Shown here piece by piece: positions 23,567 through 53,536 of a stretch of 64,000 nt of DNA. The stretch is from Patescibacteria group bacterium. GTDB lineage: Bacteria; Patescibacteriota; Microgenomatia; Levybacterales; UBA12049. The stretch covers positions 2,109-66,108 of the forward strand of contig DATICB010000020.1 in NCBI GenBank assembly GCA_035457005.1, read 5' to 3'. Every line of letters starts with the position of its first letter. Position 1 is the first letter of the stretch. Under the pieces are notes generated by a model that was not told where the DNA came from, searched no databases, and was given only the letters and a program-made list of their open reading frames with translations. A program made the position numbers and the translations under genes.

Positions 23567-24115
23567 TTATTCTTTTGTTATTTCCCAAAACTTTTCTCCC
23601 AAACTATCCCACGGAAGACGCATTTCATCAGGATTTTTTATATCAAACTGTTCGCTGACAAAATAAATGACAGTTGCAGGATTTTCAAATGGATTCATGT
23701 AGCCGTGCGCTACTCCTTGGGGAATTCGAACCCAGTGTGCTTTCCCGCCACCTAATGCTAAACGCATAGTTTGACCTTTTGTTGGGGATTTTTCGCGTAA
23801 ATCCCACAACCCAACAATCAGCTTATCGCCAGGTAAAACAGTTTGAATTTCTTCTTGTTTTAAATGGAAATGCCACGCCTTAACCGATTTTGGCATAACA
23901 AGAGATCTACTTATCTGGCGAATGTGAAAGTGTGGAAATTCTTCTAATTTTCCATCTGGGCTAAGTCTTGCCAGTTCTGAAAAATCGCCATCTTCACCAG
24001 TAAATACTTTCATTTCCACAACTTCTACACCATCAATTTTTTGCTTGGGAGAATAATCCTGCGTGCTAACGAAAGGTTGATACTGCTTTGCAATGTCTGA
24101 TTTGGTGAGAGTCAT
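23567..24115 (-). CDS. dTDP-4-dehydrorhamnose 3,5-epimerase-like cupin (RmlC family)
   Basis: 182 aa; cupin barrel with RmlC-like motifs (WHFHLKQEE...RIPQGVAHGY). Confidence 0.7.
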   Translation of the reverse strand: MTLTKSDIAKQYQPFVSTQDYSPKQKIDGVEVVEMKVFTGEDGDFSELARLSPDGKLEEFPHFHIRQISRSLVMPKSVKAWHFHLKQEEIQTVLPGDKLIVGLWDLREKSPTKGQTMRLALGGGKAHWVRIPQGVAHGYMNPFENPATVIYFVSEQFDIKNPDEMRLPWDSLGEKFWEITKE

Positions 24116-37753: not shown

Positions 37754-39691
37754 TTGACACAACTTCAAAGGTTAACTACTATAAAAGTAATGCCCGATCA
37801 GCAACCAGTTCCGCAGGGAAATCCTGTTGGAGCAAATCCCTCAGTTGTCACTCCTTTAGTGAGTGTGTCTCCTGCTGTGCAGCAGCCTATCAATGCAGCA
37901 ACACCAGTAACTCCAACTGTTCAGCAAGCAACGCCGGAACTTAGGCCACCAGCAATAAGCCAGCAACCCTTTGTATCAAGTAGTCAACCGGAGACAAATG
38001 TTGTCGACGCACTTTTCCGACAAGGGCTACTCACTAAACAACAATATGACGAGATTAAGTTAAAAAGCGCGACAACCAATAAGTCAGCAGACGAAATTTT
38101 GCAGGAAATGCACATTGTTGATCCTGAAAAAATTGCAGAAGTAAAGGCAACGCTTTTAGGCGTCCCTTACATTAATTTATCTACTGCTTCTTTTTCTCCA
38201 GAAGCTTTAAGTTTTATTCCACGTGCTGTTGTTGAGCGTTTTCAACTTATCCCCTTTTTATACGACGACAAAGCAAAAGTTTTATCTGTTGCAATGAGTG
38301 ATCCTTCGGATTTGGACGCAATCAGCTTTATTCAGCAAAAAACAGGTCTTACCATAAAAACATTTGCCGCATCTGCAGATGATGTAAAAAGTGCCATATC
38401 TGCACAGTATCGCCAAGAATTGGTAGGAGAAGTCGGAAAAGCAGTTAAGGAGACAGAAGAATTGCACGAAACCAATGAAGCCAAAACAGTAGACAGCTCC
38501 CAAATAGGTCAGATTATTAAAGAAGCACCAATTGCAAAAATTGTCGCAACCATTTTGGAATATGCAGTCAATTCTCGCGCATCCGATGTGCATATCGAGC
38601 CAATGGAAGACAGAGTACGAGTGAGGTATCGCATTGACGGCATTTTGTACGATAGACTAAGTCTTCCAAAATCAGTGCAGGATGCCGTGATCTCGCGTAT
38701 CAAAGTGCTTTCTGAAATGAAAATTGATGAACACCGAACGCCGCAGGATGGAAGATTTAATTTTAAAGTTGGTAATCAAGAGGTTGATCTTCGTATTTCT
38801 GTTTTACCTACAGTACATGGCGAGAAAATCGTTATGAGACTTCTTCGCAAATCAGGAGGCATTCCTACACTTCCTGAATTGGGACTTAATGGAACATCAC
38901 TCAAAGAATTGGAAACAGCAATTCTTCGCCCGCACGGCATTATTTTAGTCTGCGGGCCTACGGGATCTGGAAAAACAACGACATTGTACGCAGTGCTGGC
39001 CAAGCTCAATACAACGCGTGTGAATATTGTTTCTTTGGAAGATCCGGTTGAGTACGAAATTCCCGGAGTCAATCAGGTGCAAATTAATCCTGCTGTGGGA
39101 CTTACGTTTGCCGATGGACTCAGAAGTTTCCTGCGTCAGGATCCTAATATTATTCTTGTTGGAGAAATTCGGGATAGTGAGACAACAGATTTGGCAATTC
39201 AGGCAGCGCTCACCGGTCATTTGGTTTTTTCAACACTTCATACATCAGATGCGGCAGGTGCCCTCCCTCGTCTTATTGATTTAGGAGCAGAAACATTTCT
39301 TTTAGCATCAACGATTACCGCTGTTATGGGACAAAGAATTGTGAGAAAAATTTGCCCAAATTGCAAAGAATCCTACATACCAGCACCTCAGCTTGTTGAG
39401 GAAATCAAAAAAGAACTCGGTCCGCTCATGCCGCAAGGGGAGATAAAGCTCTACAAAGGAAAAGGATGCAGTGAATGCGGTGATTCAGGTTATATAGGCA
39501 GAGTTGGTATTTTTGAAGTCCTCACGGTTACTGAAAAAATTGCTCATCTTATTTTGCAACGGGCAGATGCAGAAGCAATAGAAAAACAGGCGGTAGTAGA
39601 GGGTATGATTACCATGAAGCAGGATGGATACTTAAAAGTGTTGGCGGGTGTAACAACGATAGAAGAAGTGTTGCGTGTTGCGCAGGAATAA
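37754..39691 (+). CDS. pilB: type IV pilus assembly ATPase PilB (GspE family) with Pro-rich N-terminal extension
   Basis: GspII_E N-domain, Walker A VCGPTGSGKTTTL, Asp/His boxes, tetracysteine zinc motif CPNC...CSEC. Confidence 0.9.
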   Translation: MTQLQRLTTIKVMPDQQPVPQGNPVGANPSVVTPLVSVSPAVQQPINAATPVTPTVQQATPELRPPAISQQPFVSSSQPETNVVDALFRQGLLTKQQYDEIKLKSATTNKSADEILQEMHIVDPEKIAEVKATLLGVPYINLSTASFSPEALSFIPRAVVERFQLIPFLYDDKAKVLSVAMSDPSDLDAISFIQQKTGLTIKTFAASADDVKSAISAQYRQELVGEVGKAVKETEELHETNEAKTVDSSQIGQIIKEAPIAKIVATILEYAVNSRASDVHIEPMEDRVRVRYRIDGILYDRLSLPKSVQDAVISRIKVLSEMKIDEHRTPQDGRFNFKVGNQEVDLRISVLPTVHGEKIVMRLLRKSGGIPTLPELGLNGTSLKELETAILRPHGIILVCGPTGSGKTTTLYAVLAKLNTTRVNIVSLEDPVEYEIPGVNQVQINPAVGLTFADGLRSFLRQDPNIILVGEIRDSETTDLAIQAALTGHLVFSTLHTSDAAGALPRLIDLGAETFLLASTITAVMGQRIVRKICPNCKESYIPAPQLVEEIKKELGPLMPQGEIKLYKGKGCSECGDSGYIGRVGIFEVLTVTEKIAHLILQRADAEAIEKQAVVEGMITMKQDGYLKVLAGVTTIEEVLRVAQE

Positions 39692-39766
39692 TCTTGCATA
39701 GGGCAATTGAGCCTGGAGAATAACTTAAGCACTAAACTCTTAGCTCTTTGCTATACTGAAAGTATT

Positions 39767-40834
39767 ATGGATTTACAGCAATTATTAGAATTAGTTGTTA
39801 AAAGCAATGCATCGGATTTGCATTTATTGCCTGGACTTCCTCCGGCAATTCGTGTTGATGGTAATTTGTCCTATGTTGCGCAGGTTGCTGTTTTAAGCTC
39901 TGAAAGTGTGACGAGCATGCTTTTTGGGCTTTTGAGTGCCGAGCAGAAAGATTTGCTCACTGCAAATAAAGAGCTTGATTTTTCTATGCCGTATGGTGGC
40001 GGTATTTATGGAGACTTAGGACGTTTTCGTGTCAATGCATACTACCAACGGGGGCAATTATGCGGGGCGTTTCGTTTTTTGCCCAAAACAATTAAAACAA
40101 TTGAAGATTTACATTTGCCACGAATTTGTCACACATTTGCAAATTTACGCCAGGGATTTGTTTTGGTAACAGGCCCAACAGGACAAGGAAAATCAACAAC
40201 TCTCGCCTCAATGGTAAATGAAATTAATATGACGCGGGCAAATCATATTTTAACGATTGAGGATCCAATTGAATATGTGTACCCCAATGGAAAAAGTATT
40301 ATTTCTCAGCGCGAAATGAAATCAGACACTCATTCGTGGACTATGGCACTTCGTTCCTCTTTACGTGAAGATCCAGATGTTGTCTTAATTGGTGAAATGC
40401 GTGATCCTGATACCATGCAGGCAGCAATGACCATTGCAGAGACTGGTCATTTGGTGTTGTCGACACTCCATACAAATTCTGCATCACAATCAATAGACAG
40501 AATTATTGATAGCTTCCCTGAGCATCAACAAACCCAAATTCGCACGCAGCTTTCATTTACCTTAAAAGGCATTATTTCGCAAAGACTTATTCCACAAATT
40601 TCTGGAGGAAGAATTCCAGCTGTTGAAATCTTAGTCGGTACGCCTGCGGTAGCAAGTAATGTGCGAGATGGAAAAACGCATTTGATTGATTCTATTATCC
40701 AAACATCACAAGATGTCGGCATGGTAACACTTGATAATTCTCTTTCACAACTTGTTTTGTCTGGAGCTATTAGTCTTGATACGGCAAAATCCTACAGCTT
40801 GCACCCTGAAGAACTTCTGAGAATGGTGGGATAA
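39767..40834 (+). CDS. pilT: type IV pilus retraction ATPase PilT
   Basis: start at MDLQQLLEL; Walker A VTGPTGQGKSTTL; PilT-type C-terminus; no zinc-finger. Confidence 0.9.
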   Translation: MDLQQLLELVVKSNASDLHLLPGLPPAIRVDGNLSYVAQVAVLSSESVTSMLFGLLSAEQKDLLTANKELDFSMPYGGGIYGDLGRFRVNAYYQRGQLCGAFRFLPKTIKTIEDLHLPRICHTFANLRQGFVLVTGPTGQGKSTTLASMVNEINMTRANHILTIEDPIEYVYPNGKSIISQREMKSDTHSWTMALRSSLREDPDVVLIGEMRDPDTMQAAMTIAETGHLVLSTLHTNSASQSIDRIIDSFPEHQQTQIRTQLSFTLKGIISQRLIPQISGGRIPAVEILVGTPAVASNVRDGKTHLIDSIIQTSQDVGMVTLDNSLSQLVLSGAISLDTAKSYSLHPEELLRMVG

Positions 40835-40865: not shown

Positions 40866-42068
40866 ATGAAAATACAATACCGCGCAACCAACAAAGAGGG
40901 AAAAGTTACCCAAGGCGTTTTGGAAGCAAAAGACGTGAACGAGGCAGTTGGGTTTTTGCGTACCAACGGCATGCTTCCTTTGTCTGTGAGAGAAATGACC
41001 TCACAAGGGTTTTCTTTTTCGGCTCTTTTTCAAAAATCCTCAACACAAGATTTAGTTTTATTTACCAGACAATTGTCATCTATTCTTTCTTCGGGACTGA
41101 CGCTTATGCAGGCTTTGAATATTTTAAAAGAGCAGGTGCAGAATCCGCAGATGAAACAAATTGTTGAAAGCCTTATTGCCGATGTGCAGGAAGGAAAAAC
41201 ATTTGCCGATGCTATTGCAAAATACCCAAAAATTTTTAACCCAATTTATATTTCTCTTATCCGTGCTGCAGAATCATCTGGTTTTTTAGACAAAGTGCTG
41301 CTTCGTTTGGCAGACAATTTGGAAAAACAGCAAAAATTAGCAAGTACCATAAAATCAGCCTTAGCATATCCGATTATCGTTATCGTCCTTATGATCGTTG
41401 TCATGTTTGTCATGATGATTTTTGTCATCCCACAACTGACAGTTTTGTACCAAAACTTGAATATCCCCCTCCCCTTTACTACCCAGGTTATGGTTGCAGT
41501 TTCTAATTTTACGATTGGATTTTGGCCGCTGATTCTTGGCATGGTTATTCTTATTGGGGTTGCCTATAATAGGTGGCTTAAAACAGAATCAGGAAAACTA
41601 ATTACTGACAGTATTAAGCTGAAATTGCCGGTTTTTGGTGTGTTGATTAGAAAAACGATCATGGCTGAGTTTTCTCGAACCTTTGGTTTGTTGGTTGGCG
41701 CAGGAACGCTTGTGGTACAATCTCTTAACGAGTCAGCAGACACAACAGGAAATGTTATTTATCGAAGTGCAATTCAGGAAATTGCGAAACGCGTTGAAAA
41801 AGGTATTTCAATTGGTGATGCCATGGCAGCGTTTGATATTTTCCCACCAATTCTTATTCAAATGGTAAAAATTGGCGAGCAAACAGGAAAATTAGATGAG
41901 TCGCTTTTAAAAGTTTCAGAATATTTTGAACGCGAAGTTGATGGGACGGTGAAGACACTGACAACCGCGATGGAACCATTTATTATGATTATTTTGGGAA
42001 TTGGCGTTTCGTTTCTCATTATTTCTATCATCACGCCAATTTACAACCTGACATCAAGCATCCAATAA
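40866..42068 (+). CDS. pilC: type IV pilus platform protein PilC (GspF family)
   Basis: 400 aa, two GspF repeats, 3-4 TM segments. Confidence 0.9.
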   Translation: MKIQYRATNKEGKVTQGVLEAKDVNEAVGFLRTNGMLPLSVREMTSQGFSFSALFQKSSTQDLVLFTRQLSSILSSGLTLMQALNILKEQVQNPQMKQIVESLIADVQEGKTFADAIAKYPKIFNPIYISLIRAAESSGFLDKVLLRLADNLEKQQKLASTIKSALAYPIIVIVLMIVVMFVMMIFVIPQLTVLYQNLNIPLPFTTQVMVAVSNFTIGFWPLILGMVILIGVAYNRWLKTESGKLITDSIKLKLPVFGVLIRKTIMAEFSRTFGLLVGAGTLVVQSLNESADTTGNVIYRSAIQEIAKRVEKGISIGDAMAAFDIFPPILIQMVKIGEQTGKLDESLLKVSEYFEREVDGTVKTLTTAMEPFIMIILGIGVSFLIISIITPIYNLTSSIQ

Positions 42069-42195
42069 AGACAGTTCGGAAATCTGGCTTGATACTGTGG
42101 AATCTAATTTACTCACAGATGTGTACTTTTTCGAATTTGCAGCAAGTTGGGATCTTGACAAGGTGAAAAAAAGTGTGTTTAACTTAATTAGAGTC

Positions 42196-42747
42196 ATGAT
42201 TAACCTGTCCAAACTTTTCAAAAGTTTTCATTCGTCACCTATCTCCCTTCAATCGGGCTTTACCCTTATCGAACTTCTTGTTGTTATTGGTATTTTAGGT
42301 GTTTTGGCAGCAGCACTGGTCGCAACGATTGATCCTTTCGAGCAGCTTAAAAAAGCAAATGACGCGAATGTCAAAAATACTGCAGTTGAATTTATTGATG
42401 CAAATATTCGCTACTACACGACGCATAGTCACATGCCATGGGCACCAGGTGGATGCAATGCAGGCAACGACCCATCGAGTCTTTCGTTGTACCCAGACCT
42501 TACAACGTGTATGAGTAGTTTGGTAGCAGATGGCGAGGTCAAGACTGCCTTCACGACTGTCACTGGAGTGCTCAGTTCGATCATTATTAATGGGACAGAT
42601 ACAGACATTACTGCTTGCTTCTTACCACAATCAAAAGCGCAAAGGTCTGATCCAAATACGAAATTTGACAGGAATGGCGTAGAAATTGCGAATCCATCTT
42701 CCACATGCGGACCAACATCGACTGCCTGCTACTGGTGTTCACAATAA
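42196..42747 (+). CDS. type IV pilin (candidate major pilin)
   Basis: class III signal ...SLQSG|FTLIELLVVIGILGVLAA with Glu+5; C-terminal Cys pair; first structural gene after pilC. Confidence 0.8.
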   Translation: MINLSKLFKSFHSSPISLQSGFTLIELLVVIGILGVLAAALVATIDPFEQLKKANDANVKNTAVEFIDANIRYYTTHSHMPWAPGGCNAGNDPSSLSLYPDLTTCMSSLVADGEVKTAFTTVTGVLSSIIINGTDTDITACFLPQSKAQRSDPNTKFDRNGVEIANPSSTCGPTSTACYWCSQ

Positions 42748-42756
42748 GCCCTTTTC

Positions 42757-44793
42757 ATGCTCTCGTTTTTTAAAAAAAACATCCTGCCCGTTATATTAGG
42801 TAGTGGTTTTTTGCTGCTATACATCTCACACCTTTCAGTAAGTGTCTATGGAGGAGATGTTGGCGACCTGGTTACTGCTGCAGCTGTTGGTGGCGTTGCT
42901 CATCCACCAGGTTATCCTCTCTTTACTTTTCTTGGGTTTTTGCTAACAAAGACTGCTGTTGCATCAATCTCTCCTGCTTTTGCAGTGGGATTGATTTCTG
43001 CATTTTCGGCAGCAGCTGGTGTTGTGGGATTTTATCTGCTCATGTTGCAGTTGACCAAAAGTAAATACGCATCACTAATTGCGTCATTAACCCTTGGTTT
43101 CTCTTTCCTCTATTGGTTTTATGCAGAAATTGCCGAAGTTTTTGCCCTTAACATTTTTTTGGCAATTTTGCTTTTTCTTTTTGCAATTGTCTATAAAAAT
43201 ACAAAAAAGAATATTTTTCTTTATGTCTTTGTTTTTTTCTTAGGGTTATCATGCACAAATCACCAAACCATTATCTTTGTTATTCCATCGACTCTTTTTA
43301 TTGTCGCCAAAACAGCATATAAAGAAGTGAAAAAACGACCGAAATCCATACTGTTTTGTTTTCTTTTGTTTTTATTTGGACTCACTCCATTTTTATATAT
43401 TCCTATTGCCTCTTCTTTCCATCCTATTATCAACTGGGACAGCGTGCATGATGTGTCAACATTTTTACATTTAATTCTTCGCAAAGACTATGGCACATTT
43501 CAGGCAGGAATTTTTGACACTCCAACCCTGTCGCAGCGCTTGGTAACAGTTGCTGTGTACCTGAAATCACTGGTGATTCAAAGTACTATCCCGGTTATTG
43601 TCTTAACGCTTTTTGGCTACTATAAACTTTATAGAAAAGATAAGACTATTTTTCTCTCACTTGCTGTTGCGTGGTTTTTGTCTGGGCCATTATTTCTTTT
43701 TTATGCAGGATTTCCTTTAACAAGTGAATTTATTATTGGCGCATATGAGCGTTTTACTCTGCTCTCGTCAATTATTTTTCTCATTCCTTTTGGCGTTGGT
43801 CTTTTGGAATTTTCAACATTATTGACAAAACTGTTACCAAAAAGAAATTATGAGAAAATTTTTCTTTCTGTTTTTCTTTTAATTCCTCTTATGCTTTTTT
43901 TCTATAATTTTCCCAAAACAAACCTCCGCTCAGTCTCTATCGGCGATACATATGCAAAAGATTTTTTACAAGTATTGCCAAAGAATTCGGTGTTGCTTAT
44001 TTCTGGAGACACGCAAATTTTTAATACGTGGTATATGTATTACGTATTGCATGTTCGTCCAGATATTCTCCTGTACAATATCGGCGCAACACCAGTAACA
44101 CAAAATGAAATCGCACAAAAACTGCAAGGAGTATCATCAAAAAATAGAACAGATACATTAATAAAAATTGTCGAAACTATGCAAAGGACAAGACCAATTT
44201 TTTCTACAACACGATTTCAATCAAAAAAAGGGGCAGCTATTACGTGGGTACCATATGGACTAACATACCAAATGTATTTATCTGGTGATAGTATTCCTGA
44301 TAAAAAAAATTATGAAAATACTTTAGATACGGTTTGGTCGCACATGCACGTACCGCCTTCCCAAGATATGGAAAATCCTGCTAATCATAGCTTAACAATA
44401 GTTGGTATTCCTACTGATTACAGTAATGCACTTATTGCTGCTGGAACTTTTGTTTACTCACAATACAAAGATATACAGAAAACCATTTTGCTCTACAAAC
44501 AGGCCGTTGCTGCCTCGCCATCAAACGGAAAAGCCTACAGTGCGCTGGGTGTTGTATATACAGGAATACCGGGCATGTGCAATGAAGCAGTTGCAAATTT
44601 TTCTCAATCTTTGGCAATTGATGCGTATCAAGAGCTACCTTACTTTCTTTTATACAATGAATATATTGCTTGTTTCAAAGATAATAAAAGAGCAGATGAA
44701 GTAAGTAAGGCGTACGAAGAATTATTTAAAAAAGATTTTCAAAAAGAAATAAAAAAATCACAGGATTCACTAAGCTCTATTTCGAATAATTAA
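42757..44793 (+). CDS. DUF2723/TMEM260-like GT-C membrane glycosyltransferase with C-terminal TPR repeats
   Basis: 678 aa; N-terminal signature YGGDVGDLVTAAAVGGVAHPPGYPLF matches the DUF2723 consensus GD.GEL....G.AHPPGYPL; about 11 TM helices; soluble C-terminal TPR-like region. Confidence 0.7.
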   Translation: MLSFFKKNILPVILGSGFLLLYISHLSVSVYGGDVGDLVTAAAVGGVAHPPGYPLFTFLGFLLTKTAVASISPAFAVGLISAFSAAAGVVGFYLLMLQLTKSKYASLIASLTLGFSFLYWFYAEIAEVFALNIFLAILLFLFAIVYKNTKKNIFLYVFVFFLGLSCTNHQTIIFVIPSTLFIVAKTAYKEVKKRPKSILFCFLLFLFGLTPFLYIPIASSFHPIINWDSVHDVSTFLHLILRKDYGTFQAGIFDTPTLSQRLVTVAVYLKSLVIQSTIPVIVLTLFGYYKLYRKDKTIFLSLAVAWFLSGPLFLFYAGFPLTSEFIIGAYERFTLLSSIIFLIPFGVGLLEFSTLLTKLLPKRNYEKIFLSVFLLIPLMLFFYNFPKTNLRSVSIGDTYAKDFLQVLPKNSVLLISGDTQIFNTWYMYYVLHVRPDILLYNIGATPVTQNEIAQKLQGVSSKNRTDTLIKIVETMQRTRPIFSTTRFQSKKGAAITWVPYGLTYQMYLSGDSIPDKKNYENTLDTVWSHMHVPPSQDMENPANHSLTIVGIPTDYSNALIAAGTFVYSQYKDIQKTILLYKQAVAASPSNGKAYSALGVVYTGIPGMCNEAVANFSQSLAIDAYQELPYFLLYNEYIACFKDNKRADEVSKAYEELFKKDFQKEIKKSQDSLSSISNN

Positions 44794-44796
44794 TTT

Positions 44797-45960
44797 ATGG
44801 AAAAAAGTACAAAAGAAATTCTTCTTCTTATTTTTTCTGTAAAAGTAAGTATCTTTCTTCTGATTTTTCTTGCATATTCATTATTGCCTTTTTCAACAAA
44901 ATTTTATTTTCCAAATTTTATATATCCGCCTAAGGCGTCAATTTCTCTGGCAACCGCCTACAAAACGTGGGATGCACAGCACTATCTTTTTCTGAGTGAA
45001 AAATGGTATCAAAAAAATGAGGATTCTGATGCATTCCCTCCTCTTTTTCCATTTACTATCTTTGTTGCAACTCTTATTACGCGAAGTAGCTTTATTTCAG
45101 GACTTTTACTTTCCAATATATTTTCTTTTATTGCTTTTTACCTTTTTTATGTATTTGTTAAAAAACAATACTCTGAAAAAATTGCTTATAGAAGTTTGTT
45201 ATTTCTTCTTGCCTTTCCCACTGCATTTTATTTTTCTCTTATCTATACAGAAAGTATTTTTCTCCTCATAGTTATAATTTTCTTTATGTATTTACAACAG
45301 AAAAAACTTTTTCTAGCTGCTGTTGCGGCATTTTTTTTACCAATGTCACGACTTATCGGAATAGCAATTAGCATTCCATTTTTATTTTCTTATATTTTGC
45401 ATTACCACGGCCATTCGGTATATGACGAACTTTCTTCTATTGGAAAATCATTACTGCAAAAAAAGAGTTTGCTACTTTTCTCCCCTTTTTTTGGACTTGG
45501 GATAGTCATGTGCATGTTTTACATTACAACAGGAAGCTTTTTTACACAGTTTAGCGCACAACAGAATTATATTTCACAATACTCTCTTTTCTCGATTTTT
45601 AATCCAATTTTTTTTCTCCGAGCACTCTTTGCTTTTCCATTAGCACTACATGGTTTTACCAATTCTCTTTTGGATAGATTATTTTTTGTCTTTTTTATCT
45701 TTATTCTCTTTTTTCTTTACAAAAGAGTTTCAAAAATACTTTTTATCTACACACTTTGTTTTGGAATTCTGCCTGTCTTGAGTGGAAGTTTTATGTCGTA
45801 CATGAGATATTTGGTTATTGTTTTCCCCATTTTTATTTGTCTTGCAAAACTCTCTTTAGAGGAAAAATATAGAAAATACACATTCCCTTTTTTATTTTTT
45901 TCAATTTTTTTACAAACATTATTTATCATTATGCATAGCTTAAATTATTGGGTTTCGTAA
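44797..45960 (+). CDS. GT-C mannosyltransferase-like membrane protein (PIG-V/GT76-like)
   Basis: 387 aa polytopic protein; first loop KTWDAQHYLFLSEKWYQK...AFPPLFPF resembles the PIG-V family motif WD..hYl.IA..GY...aFfPlyP. Confidence 0.5.
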   Translation: MEKSTKEILLLIFSVKVSIFLLIFLAYSLLPFSTKFYFPNFIYPPKASISLATAYKTWDAQHYLFLSEKWYQKNEDSDAFPPLFPFTIFVATLITRSSFISGLLLSNIFSFIAFYLFYVFVKKQYSEKIAYRSLLFLLAFPTAFYFSLIYTESIFLLIVIIFFMYLQQKKLFLAAVAAFFLPMSRLIGIAISIPFLFSYILHYHGHSVYDELSSIGKSLLQKKSLLLFSPFFGLGIVMCMFYITTGSFFTQFSAQQNYISQYSLFSIFNPIFFLRALFAFPLALHGFTNSLLDRLFFVFFIFILFFLYKRVSKILFIYTLCFGILPVLSGSFMSYMRYLVIVFPIFICLAKLSLEEKYRKYTFPFLFFSIFLQTLFIIMHSLNYWVS

Positions 45961-45961
45961 T

Positions 45962-46732
45962 ATGATATATTTTTTACTTTTTCTTTTCGGTGTCTGTTTT
46001 GGATCATTCCTTAATGTCCTCATCGATAGAATTCCTGCTGGAAAATCAGTACTCTTTGGGCGCTCACAGTGTGATTTTTGTAAAAAACAGTTGGGAATTT
46101 TTGACCTTATTCCAGTAATTTCTTATGTTTTCCTTTTAGGAAAATGCCGATATTGTAAGAAAAAACTTTCTTTGCAATACCCAATGATAGAGGTTTTAAC
46201 AGGTTTTTTATTCGTTTTTCTATTTTTCTTAGAAATGCCCATAACATTTATCCAGTTTCAACTCTTTTTAATAGACATCTTTTTAGTAAGCATGGGATTT
46301 GCGCTTACTATAATGGACATAAAATATCATCTTTTGTCAGATAAGCTTCTTGTTGTTTTTGGATTTTTTGCACTTTTACGAATAAGCATTCTGAGTCCTC
46401 AGGCACTCCCCTTTTCTTTTCTTGTGGGACTGCTTGCAACGTTGCCATTATTTCTTATTTTCTTTTTTTCAAAAGGAAAAGGAATGGGTTTTGGTGATGT
46501 TAAACTTATCGGAATTTTAGGTTTTTTACTTGGATTTCCCAATATTATTTTGTGTTATTACATCGCTTTCTTGACAGGCGCTGTAGCGGGCGTCATACTC
46601 ATTTTAGGAGGGAAAAAGAAATTGCATAACTCTGTTATTGCATTTGGACCGTTTCTTTTTCTTGGCGCCTTCATTACATACTTTTTTGAAAACACATTAT
46701 GGCAATACGCAAAAATCTTCTTAGGCTTTTAA
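45962..46732 (+). CDS. pilD: prepilin peptidase PilD (A24 family)
   Basis: tetracysteine CDFC...CRYC zinc motif, catalytic Asp regions (GFGDVKLIG). Confidence 0.9.
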   Translation: MIYFLLFLFGVCFGSFLNVLIDRIPAGKSVLFGRSQCDFCKKQLGIFDLIPVISYVFLLGKCRYCKKKLSLQYPMIEVLTGFLFVFLFFLEMPITFIQFQLFLIDIFLVSMGFALTIMDIKYHLLSDKLLVVFGFFALLRISILSPQALPFSFLVGLLATLPLFLIFFFSKGKGMGFGDVKLIGILGFLLGFPNIILCYYIAFLTGAVAGVILILGGKKKLHNSVIAFGPFLFLGAFITYFFENTLWQYAKIFLGF

Positions 46733-47478
46733 AAACTCTCAAGAGCAACAATGGATTTACCCTTATAGAACTGATTGTCGTCATTGCGATTTTGGGCATT
46801 CTTCTTATTAGCCTCATTACCACATTTAATCCATTGGCTCAGTACAACAAGGCAGCAGATGGAACAAGGGAACATGACTTGGGACAAATTCAACGGGCTC
46901 TGGATACGTATTTTAACGATACTGGTTGTTATCCAACAACATTAACATTTGGAAGCAAATGGTCTTCTGGTAGTCAGGTATACATGGAAAAAGTGCCACA
47001 GGATTTGAATTGTGCAAAGGATCCAAACAAATGTTATGTCTATGAAACAGATACGTCAACCAGTTGTCCACAATGGAATGTGCTCTATGCGTCACTGCAA
47101 AGTAGTGCTATCCCCTCGCAAGCATGTCCGCTCACGACCCGTTCGTTATGTGTCCCAAGTAATTTTAGTTCATCAAATTACAATTATTGCGTTACCTCCG
47201 GAGGTATCGATTGTGCTGTTATTGCAGGGTTTACTCTTCCATCAGCAACAGGAGGGAACAGCGGCGGAAGTGGTGGCAATGGCGGAGGGGGAAGCAGCGG
47301 TGGTAATAATGGCGGGGGCGGCAATGGTCCAATTACGTGTGCAAGTGGACAATACTATGGATGTACGGGAGATAACCGTTGTAACAGCATATCCCCATCT
47401 TCGCAATGTAGTCAAAATGGCGGTTCTGTTTTCTGTTATTGCGACAATCACTGTAATCAAAGTTGTCAATTCAATTAA
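46699..47478 (+). CDS. type IV pilin with Gly/Ser-rich linker and Cys-rich (10 Cys) C-terminal domain
   Basis: leader ...KSNNG|FTLIELIVVIAILGIL; low-complexity GGNSGGSGGNGGGGSSGGNNGGGGNG region. Confidence 0.8.
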   Translation: MAIRKNLLRLLKTLKSNNGFTLIELIVVIAILGILLISLITTFNPLAQYNKAADGTREHDLGQIQRALDTYFNDTGCYPTTLTFGSKWSSGSQVYMEKVPQDLNCAKDPNKCYVYETDTSTSCPQWNVLYASLQSSAIPSQACPLTTRSLCVPSNFSSSNYNYCVTSGGIDCAVIAGFTLPSATGGNSGGSGGNGGGGSSGGNNGGGGNGPITCASGQYYGCTGDNRCNSISPSSQCSQNGGSVFCYCDNHCNQSCQFN

Positions 47479-47480
47479 GC

Positions 47481-48050
47481 ATGAAATACACATATCAAAA
47501 TGGGTTTACCCTTATTGAGCTTATTGTCACGATTGGTATTTTGGCTGTGTTGGCTGTGTTGGCACTTGCGACACTTAATCCGTTGCAGCAATTTAGGAAA
47601 GCACGGGATGGCGAGAGAAAATCTGACTTGGCACAATTACAGCGGGTGCTTGAGCAGTATTATCAGGATCATGGCAGTTATCCCAAAAGCAGTGTGTCTA
47701 ATACTATCACTGATTTTAATGGCAACAGTGTTGTTTGGGGAGGGTCATCTGGGTGGGCTCCCTACATGAATCTTGTTCCAAAAGATCCTGACTCAAGTAG
47801 AACCTATGTCTATTATGCTGCAGGTACAACGCCACAATCATACAAGTTATTTAGCAGTCTCGAAGTTGGCCCCAATGATCCACAAACATGTAAGGCAGAT
47901 GTTGCAAATTGCCAGAATAATCCAACAAGTGTGCCGTACTGTACGTGTGGCGGAGTTCCTGCTGGAGTAGACTGTGGAGCAAATGGCGTGCATTACCCCT
48001 GCAATTATGGTGTTTCCAGTCCTAATACAACACCTGATAGCTCGCAATAA
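47481..48050 (+). CDS. type IV pilin
   Basis: short leader MKYTYQNG|FTLIELIVTIGILAVLAVLAL; Cys-containing C-terminus. Confidence 0.8.
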   Translation: MKYTYQNGFTLIELIVTIGILAVLAVLALATLNPLQQFRKARDGERKSDLAQLQRVLEQYYQDHGSYPKSSVSNTITDFNGNSVVWGGSSGWAPYMNLVPKDPDSSRTYVYYAAGTTPQSYKLFSSLEVGPNDPQTCKADVANCQNNPTSVPYCTCGGVPAGVDCGANGVHYPCNYGVSSPNTTPDSSQ

Positions 48051-48051
48051 G

Positions 48052-48564
48052 ATGTGGTACGATACGTATATGCACAAATATTTAGATAATTTTCAAAGAA
48101 AATTCTCACAACAATCAGGTTTTACTCTTATCGAGCTACTTATTGTTATTGCTATTATCGGAATTCTGTCAACACTTCTCATGACTAATTTTATTGGCGT
48201 TCGCCAGCGTGCCCGTGACGCACAGCGCAAATCAGATGTGCGTCAAATGCAGTCCGCATTGGAGTTATACAGATCAGATACAGGAAGTTATCCTGTTTCT
48301 GATTCGAATAATCGACTCAATGCAACAGCATGCACAACTTCATCGGGATTTACCAGTACCGATGGAGGGACAACGTATATGCAAAAAGTTCCCTGTGACC
48401 CATTAGGGACAAGTGCGTATCATTCAGGAAATTATTACTACAATAGTAGCGGTACGACATACACGATATATGCATGTTTGGAAAATACATCTGATTCGCA
48501 AGGCACTTCCCTATCTAATACCGGCTGTAGCACTGATTTCTTATACGTTGTAACGAATCCATGA
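48052..48564 (+). CDS. type IV pilin
   Basis: ...QQSG|FTLIELLIVIAIIGILSTLL; start immediately after upstream stop. Confidence 0.75.
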   Translation: MWYDTYMHKYLDNFQRKFSQQSGFTLIELLIVIAIIGILSTLLMTNFIGVRQRARDAQRKSDVRQMQSALELYRSDTGSYPVSDSNNRLNATACTTSSGFTSTDGGTTYMQKVPCDPLGTSAYHSGNYYYNSSGTTYTIYACLENTSDSQGTSLSNTGCSTDFLYVVTNP

Positions 48565-49163
48565 CCAGCACCGCGTCTTCCAGACAGTCAGGTTTTACCC
48601 CGATTGAATCTGGGTTTACCCTTATTGAGCTAATTATTGTTTTTTCAGTCATTACCGTACTCTCTTCGCTTGGTGTTGCTTCGTTTGTTGCATACAGCAG
48701 GTCTCAGACTATTGATACTGCAATGAAAGATTTTAAAAGTGTGTTATTTACCGCCAGGTCAAGAGCTCTTTCTCAGCTTCGTGATAGCACATGTTTTTCA
48801 AGTGGGTTTGACGGACAAGGATATGAATTGGAAGGATACCAGGTGGTTGCATGCTGCTCATTTGGGCCACTGTGCTCGTCTGTTCAGTGCAACACTGTGT
48901 CAAATAGTTATGAATTGCAGGCAGTCTATGGGTATCCCGATGGATCGGGACGAGTTGCGCAAACATGTTTGAGTAAAAAATTTGCAGATCCCAATATTGG
49001 TGTCAGTAGCTCAAATAAAACAACAGCAACGTATTTTTTCTTTTCCTCAGTAACTGGTGCAGTGACGACCAATGCCTCATCTGGGCAGCTCCCACAGATT
49101 GAATTCAGTGGCTATGGTATTACGAAATTAGCAACTGTTTCTGCGACAGGAGTTGTGCAATGA
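48561..49163 (+). CDS. type IV pilin with duplicated N-terminal cleavage motif
   Basis: MTSTASSRQSGFTPIESGFTLIELIIVFSV...; ATGA overlap with upstream gene. Confidence 0.75.
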   Translation: MTSTASSRQSGFTPIESGFTLIELIIVFSVITVLSSLGVASFVAYSRSQTIDTAMKDFKSVLFTARSRALSQLRDSTCFSSGFDGQGYELEGYQVVACCSFGPLCSSVQCNTVSNSYELQAVYGYPDGSGRVAQTCLSKKFADPNIGVSSSNKTTATYFFFSSVTGAVTTNASSGQLPQIEFSGYGITKLATVSATGVVQ

Positions 49164-49705
49164 GACATTTTCTTACAAGCCAATCGGGACAAACACTGAT
49201 TGAAGTACTGGTCGCACTAACTGCGGGTGTTGTGATTATTGCTGCAATTGTCAGTGCGTCGCTCAACGCATTGACGAATAGTAATTTTGCGAGAGATCAG
49301 AATATCGCTGCGCAATATACGCAGTCTGGTATAGAAATTATCCGTGATATGAGAAATGAAAGTATTGCATCGCTGAGCGCATCGTATCTGTCTGACAACA
49401 CGTATTGTTTGGCAAAATCATGCAGTGCATTGGATAATCAAATCCCTTCGTGTTGGATAAAAAGCGGAAATTGTGGCCAAAATGTAGATAAATTTGTTCG
49501 CGAAGTTGTTGTTGCACATGATTCATCTGATTGTAACGCAAGTCCCACGCCAAATGGTCAGCAAGGATTTTTATCATCCAATGTCAAAGTAACAGTAACA
49601 ACATTTTGGTATGATTCACGTTGTACCGATTCGAGTAATGCATTTTGTCACTCAGTTACGCTGTCATCATGTTTTTCTGATTTTACTATTGCACCAACGC
49701 CATGA
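49160..49705 (+). CDS. minor pilin / pseudopilin-like
   Basis: ...SQSG|QTLIEVLVALTAGVVIIAAI; ATGA overlap. Confidence 0.65.
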   Translation: MRHFLTSQSGQTLIEVLVALTAGVVIIAAIVSASLNALTNSNFARDQNIAAQYTQSGIEIIRDMRNESIASLSASYLSDNTYCLAKSCSALDNQIPSCWIKSGNCGQNVDKFVREVVVAHDSSDCNASPTPNGQQGFLSSNVKVTVTTFWYDSRCTDSSNAFCHSVTLSSCFSDFTIAPTP

Positions 49706-50268
49706 AACAAATCTCAAATCTCAAATCACAAAACCCAAATCATAAATCCAAAATCATCAATCAAAGTGGATTTACGCTCATTGAAATGCTCGCGGTTATC
49801 ATTATCTTTATTGTTGTTGGAACAATTGCTGTCAGTATTCTTGTTACGTCATTTCGCACGTCTACCAAAACAGATGTCGTGACTGCGGTGCAAAATAATG
49901 GAAATTATGCATTGTCTCAAATGGCTAAAACAATACGCGATGCACGAGGACTCGTAACCCCTTTCCCCTGTTCTCCAACGGTTGTTGCAAATACCATTAG
50001 TATTACCACTCCTGACAATCAAGAAGTTACGTATGCATGTGGCAATTCGACAATTGCGTCAAATGGTGCAAGTTTGCTTGATACAACACAGGTTGCTGTG
50101 CAGGCATGTTCGTTTACCTGTAGTCAGGATAGTAAATCGGATTTGCCAGTTATTCTTATTGCCTTTTCGCTCTTGCAAAAATCATCGAGCAGTTTTGCCG
50201 AACAAAAGGCATCACAAAGCGCGGTATTCTTCCAAACCTCCATTGGTATTCGAAATATTAATAGATAA
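49702..50268 (+). CDS. minor pilin-like with long basic leader
   Basis: MKQISNLKSQNPNHKSKIINQSG|FTLIEMLAVIIIF; leader encoded by a degenerate 7-nt tandem repeat. Confidence 0.7.
   Translation: MKQISNLKSQNPNHKSKIINQSGFTLIEMLAVIIIFIVVGTIAVSILVTSFRTSTKTDVVTAVQNNGNYALSQMAKTIRDARGLVTPFPCSPTVVANTISITTPDNQEVTYACGNSTIASNGASLLDTTQVAVQACSFTCSQDSKSDLPVILIAFSLLQKSSSSFAEQKASQSAVFFQTSIGIRNINR
49708..49763 (+). repeat. degenerate heptanucleotide tandem repeat (about 8 units of CAAATCT)
   Basis: caaatct caaatct caaatca caaaacc caaatca taaatcc aaaatca tcaatca, within the 5' coding region of the 49702 pilin. Confidence 0.7.
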
Positions 50269-50306: not shown

Positions 50307-51188
50307 ATGCGTACCAATTTCTCTGGGAAATTTTCCGTTGGTCAGTCAGGACAAGCGCTTCTTATTGTTGTGTTGGTCATGGTGATTGCGCTCACCGTTG
50401 GTCTCTCTCTTGCATCAAGAAGTATTACCACGCTTCGTAATTCCACTGATGAGGCAGCGTCTCAAGCGGCATTTTCTGCTGCAGAAGCAGGTGTTGAGCA
50501 AGCAGTAAAATTAGGAGATGTCAGCGGTGCATCGATTTTATCTGGTGTCTCATTGCATGATAAGAATAATTCGCAAATTAGTAGTGTTGATATCTCGCTT
50601 ATCGATGGAAGCCAATTTCTTTTGAATAATGGCAATCCAATTTTCCAGGACGATGGTACCGATATTTGGCTTTCTTCGCATACCGATGACCCCTCGCAAC
50701 TTTTCCAAACAGCATGGAATGGGACATTATTTGTTCATTGGGGAACAAATACCGATACATGTGCAGATCCTGCAATGGAAATTCTGGTTATTTCAGGGAC
50801 TCGGGTAAGTCCAACACTCGCACGATATACGTTTGATTCATGTGCAACAAGGCGAAGTGTGAATTCTTTTTGTGCTATTGCTGCAGGAGGCGCGTGTCCA
50901 AGTTCTGCAGCCGGAGGTTTTGTCGTTAATGGTATTAATGGCAGTCAAACATTTAATTACCGAGTACAACTCCCTATTACTAATGGACTTCTTGCACGGG
51001 TTGTTCCTTTATATAAAGCTGGAAGCATTGGTATTAAAGGCGCAGGACTTCCAATACAAGGAAAAATTATTACCTCTACCGGAACAGCTGGTGTTACCAA
51101 CTCGCAAACAGTAAGAAAAGTAAGTTTTTTCCAAGGGTATGACAGTGTTCCGTCAGAATTTTTCTATTCTCTTTTTCAACCAAAATGA
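50307..51188 (+). CDS. PilX_N-domain minor pilin / pilus tip-associated protein
   Basis: GQALLIVVLVMVIALTVGLSLASRS...AFSAAEAGVEQA matches the PilX N-terminal domain pattern. Confidence 0.65.
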   Translation: MRTNFSGKFSVGQSGQALLIVVLVMVIALTVGLSLASRSITTLRNSTDEAASQAAFSAAEAGVEQAVKLGDVSGASILSGVSLHDKNNSQISSVDISLIDGSQFLLNNGNPIFQDDGTDIWLSSHTDDPSQLFQTAWNGTLFVHWGTNTDTCADPAMEILVISGTRVSPTLARYTFDSCATRRSVNSFCAIAAGGACPSSAAGGFVVNGINGSQTFNYRVQLPITNGLLARVVPLYKAGSIGIKGAGLPIQGKIITSTGTAGVTNSQTVRKVSFFQGYDSVPSEFFYSLFQPK

Positions 51189-52213
51189 CAAAACAAAAAG
51201 CATTCGGACTAGACATAGGAACACATAGTATAAAAGCTGTCTGGCTTGCAAAAGACCAACGTGGATTTTTTCTCCAATCTGCTCTCACTATGCCCGCTCC
51301 TCAGCGGGGTATGTTGTCTGAATCCCCTCTTGATCAGGAAGAAATGGCAAGAGCAATCAGGACTCTTCTCGATGAAGCAAAAATTTCGACAAAATATGTC
51401 AATGTCGCCTTACCTGAAAACCAAGTGTATACAAAAGTCATCGAAATCCCGACGCTCTCTGATAAAGAATTGGCTTCGGCAATTTACTGGGAGGCCGAGC
51501 AATACATTCCTGTCCCCCTGACGACCATAACGCTTGATTATAAAGTTATTTCTCGTCCACAAACAAAAGCAGCAGGAAACACTATGCGTGTGTTATTGGT
51601 TGGTGCACCAACGGTACTGATTGAAAAATATGAAAAAGTTTTGGGAACAGCAGGACTCATGCTTAATGCAGTGGAGACAGAAATCATTTCTCTCACTCGT
51701 GCGGCAGTTACTGACAATCAGTTTCCAGCAACGCTTATTGTGAATATTGGCGCCATGAGTACGTCTTTGGCAATTATCAAGAATGGTGAACTTGTCTTTA
51801 CCTATTCCCTTGCAACAGGAGGCGTAGCAATTTCCCGGGCAATCGCTGCGGATTTGGGGTTTGCCCTGGCACAAGCTGAGGAATACAAAAAAACGTATGG
51901 GTTAGCAGATAGCGCGTTGGGTGGAAAGTTGGGTAAAGTAACTGAGCCGATTCTCTCTAGTATTCTTACAGAAGTAAGAAAGTCGCTATCTTTCTACAGC
52001 ACAAAATACACCAATGATCCAATAAAACAAATTATTTTGTCTGGTGGATCGGCCAAACTTCCTGGTTTGGCAACCTACTTTACATCCAATACTGGTGTTG
52101 AAACAGCAATTATTAATCCTTGGAAATTACTTATTCCCCAAGAAGTACCAAAAGATATTATTGATAATGCACCAGAGTATGCAATTGCTGCAGGTCTTGC
52201 AATGAGAGACTAG
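51185..52213 (+). CDS. pilM: type IV pilus assembly protein PilM (actin-like ATPase)
   Basis: GLDIGTHSIKAV phosphate-1 motif, 342 aa. Confidence 0.9.
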   Translation: MTKQKAFGLDIGTHSIKAVWLAKDQRGFFLQSALTMPAPQRGMLSESPLDQEEMARAIRTLLDEAKISTKYVNVALPENQVYTKVIEIPTLSDKELASAIYWEAEQYIPVPLTTITLDYKVISRPQTKAAGNTMRVLLVGAPTVLIEKYEKVLGTAGLMLNAVETEIISLTRAAVTDNQFPATLIVNIGAMSTSLAIIKNGELVFTYSLATGGVAISRAIAADLGFALAQAEEYKKTYGLADSALGGKLGKVTEPILSSILTEVRKSLSFYSTKYTNDPIKQIILSGGSAKLPGLATYFTSNTGVETAIINPWKLLIPQEVPKDIIDNAPEYAIAAGLAMRD

Positions 52214-52214
52214 T

Positions 52215-52748
52215 ATGGCTGATATTAATCTACTTATCCAAAAACATCAGGGATTTTTCTCTGAAGACAGACTTTTGCTTTTTTCAAAAGTAGGAGCAAT
52301 AAGTGGCGTCGTGCTTGTTTTGTCTCTTTCAATTCTTTTTTTTCTTTTAAGTCGTGATCCCTCTATTGCACAGGTAAAAGCAGATGAAACAAGAACAATT
52401 GCGCAGTTGACGCTTTTGCAAAGTAAGACAGCAAAATATCTTATTGTGGTAGACAGAATTCAAAAAATTAAAGCAATTGAAAAAAACAAGACAACTTTTG
52501 CTGACACTATTTCTTCATTTGTTGGTCTTATCCCTGGTGGCGCAACAATTACCAACTTTACTTTGGATAAGCACACACTTTCTCTCGCCGTGTCTGCGTC
52601 TGACTTATCGCTTTTGGGAAAAGCAGTCGATAACTTTACATCGCTTGTTTTGCAGAAAAAAATCCTTAAAAATCTGAGCATTCAGGGACTTGTTTCAGAT
52701 GAAAAAGGTGGCAAATATGTCTTAACGCTCTCAGGAGATTTACTATGA
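52215..52748 (+). CDS. pilN: PilN-like pilus assembly protein
   Basis: MADINLL N-terminus, single TM helix, follows pilM by 1 nt. Confidence 0.65.
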   Translation: MADINLLIQKHQGFFSEDRLLLFSKVGAISGVVLVLSLSILFFLLSRDPSIAQVKADETRTIAQLTLLQSKTAKYLIVVDRIQKIKAIEKNKTTFADTISSFVGLIPGGATITNFTLDKHTLSLAVSASDLSLLGKAVDNFTSLVLQKKILKNLSIQGLVSDEKGGKYVLTLSGDLL

Positions 52749-53536
52749 ATACAAATAGCAAAGTGACCATGAACCAACTGGTTTTTCGAAATCTCTATTT
52801 CAGGTATCGAGATTTTATTACACCAGTAAGCACGATATGTGTTTGCATACTGTTGTTTTGGTTTGTGGTAATTCCACAAATGCAGAGCTGGTTTGCGCTT
52901 CGTAACGACCTAACGGTCAACATTCAAGACGTGGGAATTATGCATCAAAACTTGTCATTTCTCACCAAGCTCGACGATGCAGCGCTGTCTACCATGTTGA
53001 CAACAGCAACAAGCGCGTTGCCTGCAGATAAAGATTTTGCTGGTATTGTTGCATCTATTCAAAATGCCGCAGCTGTTTCTGGTGCAACATTGGGTGATTA
53101 CTCTTTTCAATTGGGAGATTTGGCGGGACTGGATCAGAATGGCAAACCATCACAGTTGCCAGTGCAGTTAAATATTGTTTTAAAAGGAGATATTACGGAT
53201 GCACAGCGTTTTGCAGCACAGCTAAAAAAACAATTACCCTTATCAGATGCCATTGCTATCTCGGTGAGTGCAAATCAGTCAATTACAGTAACAGTTGTTT
53301 TTTATTATGCGCAGATTCCTAAAATTGTTTTTCAGGACACAAGACCACTGCCTCTTTTAAGTAAAACCGACCAACAGCTACTTAATAGTCTTGCCAGTGG
53401 TAATAATCTGCAAAATGCAGAGCTTTCTACGCCAGGAGCAAGTGTTTCTGCAACACCAACGCCTGCAGTTAGTCTCGCACCAACACCAACAATTGTGATT
53501 TCCCCTTCGCCAACAGGAACAGCAAGTGCGCAGTAA
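52745..53536 (+). CDS. pilO: PilO-like pilus assembly protein with Thr/Pro/Ala-rich C-terminal tail
   Basis: single TM helix, coiled region, position after pilN with ATGA overlap. Confidence 0.55.
   Translation: MNTNSKVTMNQLVFRNLYFRYRDFITPVSTICVCILLFWFVVIPQMQSWFALRNDLTVNIQDVGIMHQNLSFLTKLDDAALSTMLTTATSALPADKDFAGIVASIQNAAAVSGATLGDYSFQLGDLAGLDQNGKPSQLPVQLNIVLKGDITDAQRFAAQLKKQLPLSDAIAISVSANQSITVTVVFYYAQIPKIVFQDTRPLPLLSKTDQQLLNSLASGNNLQNAELSTPGASVSATPTPAVSLAPTPTIVISPSPTGTASAQ

Follow-up and report, generated by a model that had tools for sequence, protein, structure and literature searches.

Two GT-C-fold glycosyltransferases encoded between a pilin gene and pilD as candidates for pilin glycosylation in a Patescibacteria group bacterium

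A type IV pilus operon of a Patescibacteria group bacterium includes, between its first pilin gene and pilD, the genes for two GT-C-fold glycosyltransferases, designated GT1 and GT2. These enzymes most likely glycosylate the pilus subunit, since GT1 is homologous to TMEM260 and the location between a pilin gene and pilD recurs in distant bacteria. Our preferred reading, which we consider fairly probable, is that GT1 attaches an O-linked sugar to the neighboring pilin, with a polyprenyl-phosphate sugar as the donor, and that GT2 extends the glycan. Gene context and homology point to the pilin as the acceptor and to mannose as the sugar.

The DNA analyzed, referred to as the window, is a stretch of 64,000 nucleotides in which the pilus genes are all on the plus strand. 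The operon includes pilB, which codes for the pilus extension ATPase (37754 to 39691; Pfam T2SSE, E 8e-129, plus MshEN), a gene for a pilT-like retraction ATPase (39707 to 40834; T2SSE, E 8e-43), and pilC, which codes for the platform protein (40866 to 42068; two copies of T2SSF, E 1.4e-62). These genes are followed by that of the first pilin, which is presumably the major one and is proposed as the acceptor (42196 to 42747; N_methyl, 31.3 bits), and by those of GT1, a TMEM260-like GT-C glycosyltransferase of 678 amino acids (42757 to 44793), GT2, an all-membrane GT-C glycosyltransferase of 387 amino acids that resembles ALG12, PIG-M and PIG-V (44797 to 45960), and the prepilin peptidase PilD (45962 to 46732; A24_N_bact, E 4e-32; Peptidase_A24, E 9e-13). 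The first-pass annotation had given the coordinates of the ORFs from pilC to pilD, the gaps between them (pilC to pilin 127 nt, pilin to GT1 9 nt, GT1 to GT2 3 nt, GT2 to pilD 1 nt) and the motifs of both enzymes, and all were found in the sequence as described. Six more pilin or minor-pilin genes come next (46699-47478, 47463-48050, 47974-48564, 48561-49163, 49160-49705 and 49702-50268). The remainder of the operon (50307 to 53536) consists of a 293-residue ORF, pilM (51185-52213) and two ORFs assigned by position to pilN and pilO (52215-52748 and 52745-53536). The orthologue of the pilM product is PilM_2 in two other loci, L001 and L002, which share the gene order of this stretch; the 293-residue ORF and the two ORFs at the pilN and pilO positions had no match in the Pfam scan. 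With PilB, PilT, PilC, PilD, PilM and several prepilins of the G/FTLIE type (the slash marks the cleavage site), the block is a type IV pilus operon, and no secretin is encoded in the window. Co-transcription of the block is suggested by the short gaps; scanning for promoters and terminators added no information (36 promoter-like sites versus 40.5 expected, and 15 terminator-like sites versus 13.3 expected). The G+C content falls to 0.315 at 44-46 kb. Horizontal transfer was considered as the source of this dip and rejected, as membrane proteins rich in Phe, Ile, Leu and Tyr were thought to be a better explanation. The other ORFs of the window are housekeeping genes only. The Pfam scan of the 64 kb detected neither a polyprenyl-phosphate-sugar synthase nor a mannose donor synthase or nucleotide-sugar pathway, and this counts against the glycosylation reading.

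GT1 matched PF11028 (DUF2723) at residues 34-190 with 81 bits, the cut-off being 24.2. The profile of its family (alignment A2) matched PDB 9rql_A, a structure of TMEM260, with an E value of 4.5e-68; profile positions 12-455 correspond to chain residues 31-480, and the alignment ends at TMEM260 residue 480. The motif GGDVGDL...GGVAHPPGYPLF is found at residues 32-56. In TMEM260, residues D52, H67, R264, Y267, R355 and D441 participate in donor binding or catalysis, and activity is lost or reduced when they are mutated (preprint 10.64898/2026.03.17.711096). Their equivalents in GT1, D34, H49, R242, Y245, R332 and D418, are all present in the window protein, and each of the six positions is either invariant or reaches at least 90% conservation across 36 homologues. 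The GT1 model has the three domains of TMEM260: a GT-C membrane core (residues ~1-390), an alpha/beta, Rossmann-like domain (~410-510) and a TPR domain (~550-677). A structure search of the PDB copies did not return TMEM260 for GT1, so the link between the two proteins rests on sequence. On these comparisons GT1 is a true homologue of the TMEM260/DUF2723 family with a TPR domain, as the first-pass annotation had anticipated. It is also a candidate mannose transferase that would use polyprenyl-phosphate-mannose to modify Ser or Thr residues of a protein. NCBIfam matches of the TPR region to PilW and Tgl fell well short of the cut-off and played no part in identifying the protein.

GT2 has the motifs WDAQHYLFL at residues 58-66 and AFPPLFPF at 79-86. 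Asp59, located within WDAQHY in the first outer loop, is invariant. The best 21 structural matches of GT2 were all GT-C-fold proteins, with Dol-P-Man-dependent mannosyltransferases at the top; GT2 has a GT-C fold whose first outer loop carries an acidic residue. There is no soluble acceptor-binding domain. The earlier description of GT2 as a GT-C glycosyltransferase was thus borne out, and the more specific PIG-V/GT76 label draws on its relatives. Among the relatives of GT2, 22 of 46 matched PF04188 (best E 1.1e-10) and 21 of 46 matched PMT_2, and a homologue in locus L118 scored 35 bits against PF04188 (cut-off 22.4). The window protein itself was below every curated Pfam cut-off: it had no PF04188 match at E <= 0.1 and reached 19.4 bits against PMT_2, where the cut-off is 26.1. 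Judged from these scores, the family appears to lie between the PF04188 (PIG-V) and PMT_2 models.

The first pilin starts at an ATG that is the 34th codon of a longer ORF, whose opening GTG is at 42097. The resulting leader, MINLSKLFKSFHSSPISLQSG, has 21 residues and is followed by FTLIE. The protein contains 6 Cys, and the alignment of its orthologues revealed the common elements RYYTTH..PW, GELK..FTT and a C-terminal CYWC. A prepilin motif was detected by motif scan in five of the six downstream pilin or minor-pilin genes, and both of the two that were scanned with Pfam had N_methyl/T2SSG matches. The downstream pilins had been described as Ser/Thr-rich, which agrees with a Ser+Thr content of 17-27% in the pilins versus 12.4% in nine cytoplasmic proteins of the window. 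Two observations on the aligned pilins count against glycosylation: no acceptor sequon of the TMEM260 type was apparent by inspection, and no one residue stands out as the acceptor site.

The association between pilin and GT1 genes was then measured across genomes. A same-strand pilin ORF was located directly upstream, within 400 bp, in 36 of the 83 GT1-family genes that had at least 700 bp of upstream DNA, when fewer than one would be expected by chance from a background of 0.02 pilin-motif ORFs per kb. In one locus (L092) a family-2 glycosyltransferase gene, a candidate polyprenyl-phosphate-sugar synthase, adjoins those of GT1 and a pilin. The pilin-linked GT1 proteins of Patescibacteria formed a single clade in a rough neighbor-joining tree. 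These data bear on an alternative in which GT1 and GT2 glycosylate another envelope component, such as a lipoglycan, a teichoic-acid-like polymer or other secreted proteins, and their location reflects the packing of envelope genes into long operons in a small genome. Several facts are in its favor. The more distant DUF2723 proteins (25-31% identity) have no link to pili, and the GT2 family, with 22,351 representatives at E <= 0.001, is found in the sampled members mostly away from pilus genes, including a 43%-identical one that adjoins a galactokinase gene; both facts also count against the pilin glycosylation reading. In addition, the slot after GT1 is occupied in other lineages by YfhO, an enzyme known from the glycosylation of teichoic acids, and a TMEM260-like/PIG-V-like pair is found outside any pilus locus in L118. 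Nevertheless, this explanation is unlikely. Besides exceeding chance, the adjacency of pilin and GT1 is conserved at identities from 63% to ~28% and the unit remains whole where pilBTC is inverted (L011, L028 and L031). Moreover, the adjacency, widespread in Patescibacteria, appears again with quite different neighbors in the secretin-bearing operons of an unrelated clade (L137, L164, L165 and L167). Among stand-alone GT2 homologues, 8 of 67 adjoin a prepilin-type gene versus ~0.5 expected, the latter being an estimate from background density.

The order pilin-GT1-GT2-pilD was found again in 12 other distinct loci, with GT2 identities down to 35%, and chance is excluded as its origin. Of the complete adjacent GT1-GT2 pairs sampled, 13 of 14 are inside a pilus operon; the exception is L118, and a possible 15th pair (L131) is interrupted by the end of its contig. 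The profile, structure and synteny analyses that the first-pass annotation had recommended thus each favored glycosyltransferases within a pilus operon. The second slot varies: it may hold GT2, YfhO, a PMT_2-like gene (YfhO and the PMT_2-like proteins being other GT-C enzymes) or none, and the existence of GT1-only pilus operons (L084, L085 and L089) indicates that GT2 is dispensable for the role of GT1 and counts against a joint function. This interchange, together with the lack of a soluble acceptor-binding domain in GT2, could mean that GT1 acts on the pilin while GT2 belongs to a separate pathway that makes a lipid-linked or cell-surface glycan or modifies a different pilin. We regard this as quite improbable, because the two genes, which are 3 nt apart or overlapping, stay together in 13 distinct pilus loci. 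Furthermore, GT2-type genes adjoin genes for TPR-bearing GT-C proteins outside pilus loci, in L118 and in Geomonas (L020), which suggests a shared pathway and would fit an initiator-plus-extender pair. The Geomonas neighbor was considered as a GT1 and rejected, as it matched in the TPR only, with 24.8 bits. The idea that GT1 is instead a non-catalytic pilus assembly factor, whose TPR domain serves as a scaffold or chaperone in the manner of the pilotins PilF, PilW and Tgl, is very hard to sustain, given that GT1 conserves every residue used by TMEM260 for donor binding and catalysis, that the TPR similarity is generic and that the window has no secretin for a pilotin to serve.

Glycosylation of the pilin by GT1 with extension by GT2 could proceed as follows. 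The prepilin encoded at 42196 would enter the membrane with its globular part outside. The GT-C core of GT1 would hold a polyprenyl-phosphate hexose, most likely mannose, through D34, H49, R242, Y245 and R332, while the external TPR and alpha/beta domains would take hold of a pilin segment in extended form. D418 would act as the base in the transfer to the hydroxyl of a Ser or Thr. GT2 would then add another sugar from a polyprenyl-phosphate donor, a role suggested by its having no soluble acceptor-binding domain and by its resemblance to enzymes that add mannose to an existing glycan. Finally, PilD would remove the leader and the glycosylated pilin would be built into the pilus, where the glycan may contribute to pilus stability, phage masking or partner recognition.

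The closest precedent is TfpW (AAM52060.1), a pilin glycosyltransferase with GT-C and TPR regions whose gene immediately follows pilA in Pseudomonas aeruginosa group IV strains (Pa5196 and PA7); it transfers monosaccharide-derived glycans from a polyprenyl-phosphate donor to Ser/Thr of the pilin. The first-pass annotation overlooked this enzyme when it stated that well-studied pilin glycosylation uses PglL/TfpO-type enzymes. Like GT1, TfpW has ~650 residues, a polytopic GT-C region of 11 membrane helices and, on the outside, a C-terminal TPR domain, and its gene is directly 3' of the pilin gene. On the other hand, its defining motifs, DDX in periplasmic loop 1 and YX6PFX7P, were both missing from GT1 in a pattern search, and loop 1 of GT1 has GGDVGDL and the TMEM260 residue set instead, TfpW being compared by its published description. 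TfpW also moves D-arabinofuranose, requires Dpr genes and works without a second GT-C partner. When the DUF2723 protein encoded next to a pilin in L137 was used as the query, none of the matches was named from Pseudomonas, Kingella or Acinetobacter, and no named TfpW-like protein was returned. TMEM260, the human ER protein O-mannosyltransferase (PDB 9rql, 9rqm and 9rqn), shares with GT1 the Pfam family, the key residues and the combination of GT-C, Rossmann-like and TPR domains, the last of which has in TMEM260 an asparagine ladder for acceptor binding. It differs in being eukaryotic, in its Dol-P-Man donor and in its long sequon within the IPT domains of plexins, cMET and RON. PIG-V (GT76), ALG12 (GT22), PIG-M (GT50) and PimE (GT87) are compact glycan-extending GT-C mannosyltransferases whose substrates are lipid-linked glycans, in contrast to the protein-bound sugar proposed for GT2, whose family, unlike them, is bacterial and large. 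PglL and TfpO also O-glycosylate pilins, and tfpO likewise follows pilA, but these proteins are of a different superfamily (Wzy_C or O-antigen-ligase type) and transfer preassembled undecaprenyl-diphosphate oligosaccharides; Pfam found no Wzy_C match in GT1 or GT2 at E <= 0.1. In actinobacterial protein O-mannosylation by Pmt (GT39) with GT-C extension and in the three-component systems of GT-A enzyme, flippase and GT-C enzyme (CsbB-GtcA-YfhO), a polyprenyl-phosphate monosaccharide is likewise made inside and used outside by GT-C enzymes, and YfhO-type genes stand in the place of GT2 in other pilus operons of Patescibacteria. Those systems are not known to lie within pilus operons, and their targets are many secreted proteins or teichoic acids.

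Compared by description, the proposed GT1/GT2 cassette would be a variant of the GT-C plus TPR pilin glycosylation known from TfpW. In the literature searched, no reported function was found for bacterial DUF2723/TMEM260 homologues, and the conserved link to pilin genes offers these enzymes a specific, testable substrate. It also relates an enzyme involved in human disease to a simple bacterial system that could serve to study how the TPR "hand" recognizes its acceptor. Type IV pili play a central part in host attachment by Patescibacteria, and for the Saccharibacterium TM7x the O-glycosylation of pilins is so far a prediction to which no enzyme has been assigned. The presence in many Patescibacteria pilus operons of their own GT-C cassette pinpoints genes for experimenters and suggests that the pilus glycan differs between lineages. 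As a more tentative proposal, which we hold to be possible but doubtful, bacterial TMEM260/DUF2723 proteins would be dedicated pilin O-glycosyltransferases, an ancient bacterial role for the family of enzymes that in animals now modifies plexin and MET receptors, and the slot between the major pilin and pilD in Patescibacteria would be a swappable glycosylation island with GT1 as its constant member. The partners in such an island (PIG-V-like, YfhO, PMT_2-like and sometimes a family-2 donor synthase) would vary, and the island would diversify the surface glycan of the pilus, by which these episymbionts would tune their attachment to hosts or their escape from phages.

The type IV pilus block of the window reads, entirely on the + strand, pilB, pilT, pilC, a pilin gene (ATG at 42196), GT1, GT2, pilD, six more pilin genes and pilM. 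GT1 (42757-44793, 678 amino acids) is a TMEM260-like (DUF2723/PF11028) GT-C glycosyltransferase with a TPR domain, and GT2 (44797-45960, 387 amino acids) is a second, all-membrane GT-C enzyme of a PIG-V/PMT_2-related family. The gaps from pilC through the pilin gene, GT1 and GT2 to pilD are, in order, 127, 9, 3 and 1 nt. The first-pass annotation, which proposed a pilin glycosylation module here, had described the block exactly; its genes, strand and gaps were borne out by the ORF coordinates, and the pilus gene identities were backed by Pfam. The database record identical to the GT2 sequence is a hypothetical protein from a Patescibacteria-group MAG. G+C is 0.315 across GT2 and pilD (44001-46000) compared to about 0.39-0.42 in the flanks, a dip that probably reflects the hydrophobic codon content of membrane proteins and not foreign origin. 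In the pilin after pilD (46699-47478; 16 Cys in total), a Gly/Ser/Asn low-complexity linker (GGNSGGSGGNGGGGSSGGNNGGGGNG) precedes a C-terminal domain rich in Cys.

Outside this block, the window carries housekeeping DNA of the sort usual in Patescibacteria genomes. A single nucleotide-sugar gene was found in the 64 kb; about 18 kb from GT1, it encodes a small cupin protein (23567-24115, - strand) resembling dTDP-4-dehydrorhamnose 3,5-epimerase or a sugar isomerase; a XerC/D-type integrase gene (22128-23240) lies near it. An unusual fusion protein of 536 residues (27735-29345, - strand) has a core resembling class II aminoacyl-tRNA synthetases (tRNA-synt_2) and an MGS-like domain at its C terminus, and pyrimidine biosynthesis genes adjoin it.

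When metagenomes were scanned with the GT1 profile, 83 family genes had 700 bp or more of upstream sequence, and for 36 of these a pilin ORF on the same strand lay no more than 400 bp upstream. Since the background density is 0.02 pilin-motif ORFs per kb, fewer than one would be expected by chance. Nearly all full-length GT1 homologues above about 28% identity are pilus-linked. This result is more telling than the context of the pair, which was examined by a GT2-profile scan of species-representative genomes and our own ORF labelling. In that scan, all Patescibacteria-like loci having both genes showed the order pilin-GT1-GT2-pilD, with GT2 identity down to 35%; pilBTC is inverted in three of them (L011, L028 and L031), yet the order is kept. 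Single-homologue look-ups were consistent with it. Other GT2 homologues are stand-alone genes, such as one adjoining galactokinase.

The interval between the pilin gene and pilD behaves as a glycosyltransferase island of variable content. In L084, L085 and L089 pilD directly follows GT1, with no second enzyme between. Elsewhere the slot is occupied by a polytopic YfhO-family protein (PF09586) of 720-750 residues, on either strand (L090, L095-L099, L101, L102, L105 and L120), by PMT_2-like proteins, or by both; some YfhO-bearing Patescibacteria pilus operons carry additional PMT_2-like GT-C genes. The patescibacterial locus L092 (4852-10491) has the order methyltransferase, family-2 glycosyltransferase, PMT_2-like GT-C, GT1 and a convergent pilin. 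Its family-2 enzyme is a plausible polyprenyl-phosphate-sugar synthase, the only candidate donor synthase adjoining GT1 among the sampled loci.

Related arrangements occur outside Patescibacteria. In four diderm loci (L137; L164, 6074-8540; L165, 6520-9025; L167, 5512-7992), a pilin of 125-128 residues is directly followed by a TMEM260-like gene within pilB-pilC...pilM-secretin operons; multihaem cytochrome genes adjoin two of these loci. In a rough neighbour-joining tree, the secretin-bearing sequences form their own clade, apart from a single pilin-linked Patescibacteria clade, and human TMEM260 clusters with homologues lacking a pilus link. In Verrucomicrobia, a gene for a prepilin-type protein of 260-300 residues directly adjoins the stand-alone GT2 homologue, often with overlapping ends, in 8 of 67 cases (L032, L047, L049, L056, L057, L062, L073 and L078), versus about 0.5 expected by chance on our estimate from the background density. 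Away from pili, GT2-type genes are also paired with TPR-bearing GT-C genes: the partner is TMEM260-like in L118, and a Geomonas silvestris Red330 cassette (L020, 7170-11128) comprises genes for a family-2 glycosyltransferase, a polytopic protein of 577 residues with C-terminal TPR, and a GT2 homologue. The 577-residue protein, presumed to be a GT-C enzyme, has the loop-1 motif FVYDDE, and a paralogue 4 kb off matches PMT_2 and TPR. Geomonas is a cultured genus and would be tractable for studying the function of GT2-type enzymes.

A pilin O-glycosylation cassette is the best-supported reading of the GT1-GT2 locus. GT1 would initiate glycosylation of the adjacent pilin, presumably the major one, from a polyprenyl-phosphate hexose, and GT2 would extend the glycan. 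We infer this enzymology from homology, and gene context points to the adjacent pilin as acceptor. Several Ser/Thr columns are conserved in the alignment of pilin orthologues; no TMEM260-like sequon was apparent there, without an explicit sequon search. The glycosylated target could instead be another envelope component, or GT2 could serve a pathway separate from GT1, but both alternatives are weakened because the adjacency repeats across distant lineages. A non-catalytic role for GT1 is weakened by the conservation of its catalytic residues.

The closest precedent, left out of the first-pass account of known pilin glycosylation, comes from Pseudomonas aeruginosa group IV strains: TfpW, a GT-C enzyme of 646 residues that has 11 membrane helices, carries a TPR domain at its C terminus, is encoded immediately after pilA and arabinosylates pilin Ser/Thr. 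Its DDX and YX6PFX7P motifs are absent from GT1; architecture and gene position are alike. The locus is a new form of a known kind of system, the pilin-adjacent GT-C glycosyltransferase with TPR. The literature searched yielded no connection between DUF2723/TMEM260 homologues and pilins, and the TMEM260 discovery paper says of the bacterial side only 'distant homologs in bacteria'. With this locus the bacterial TMEM260 family gains a first candidate function.
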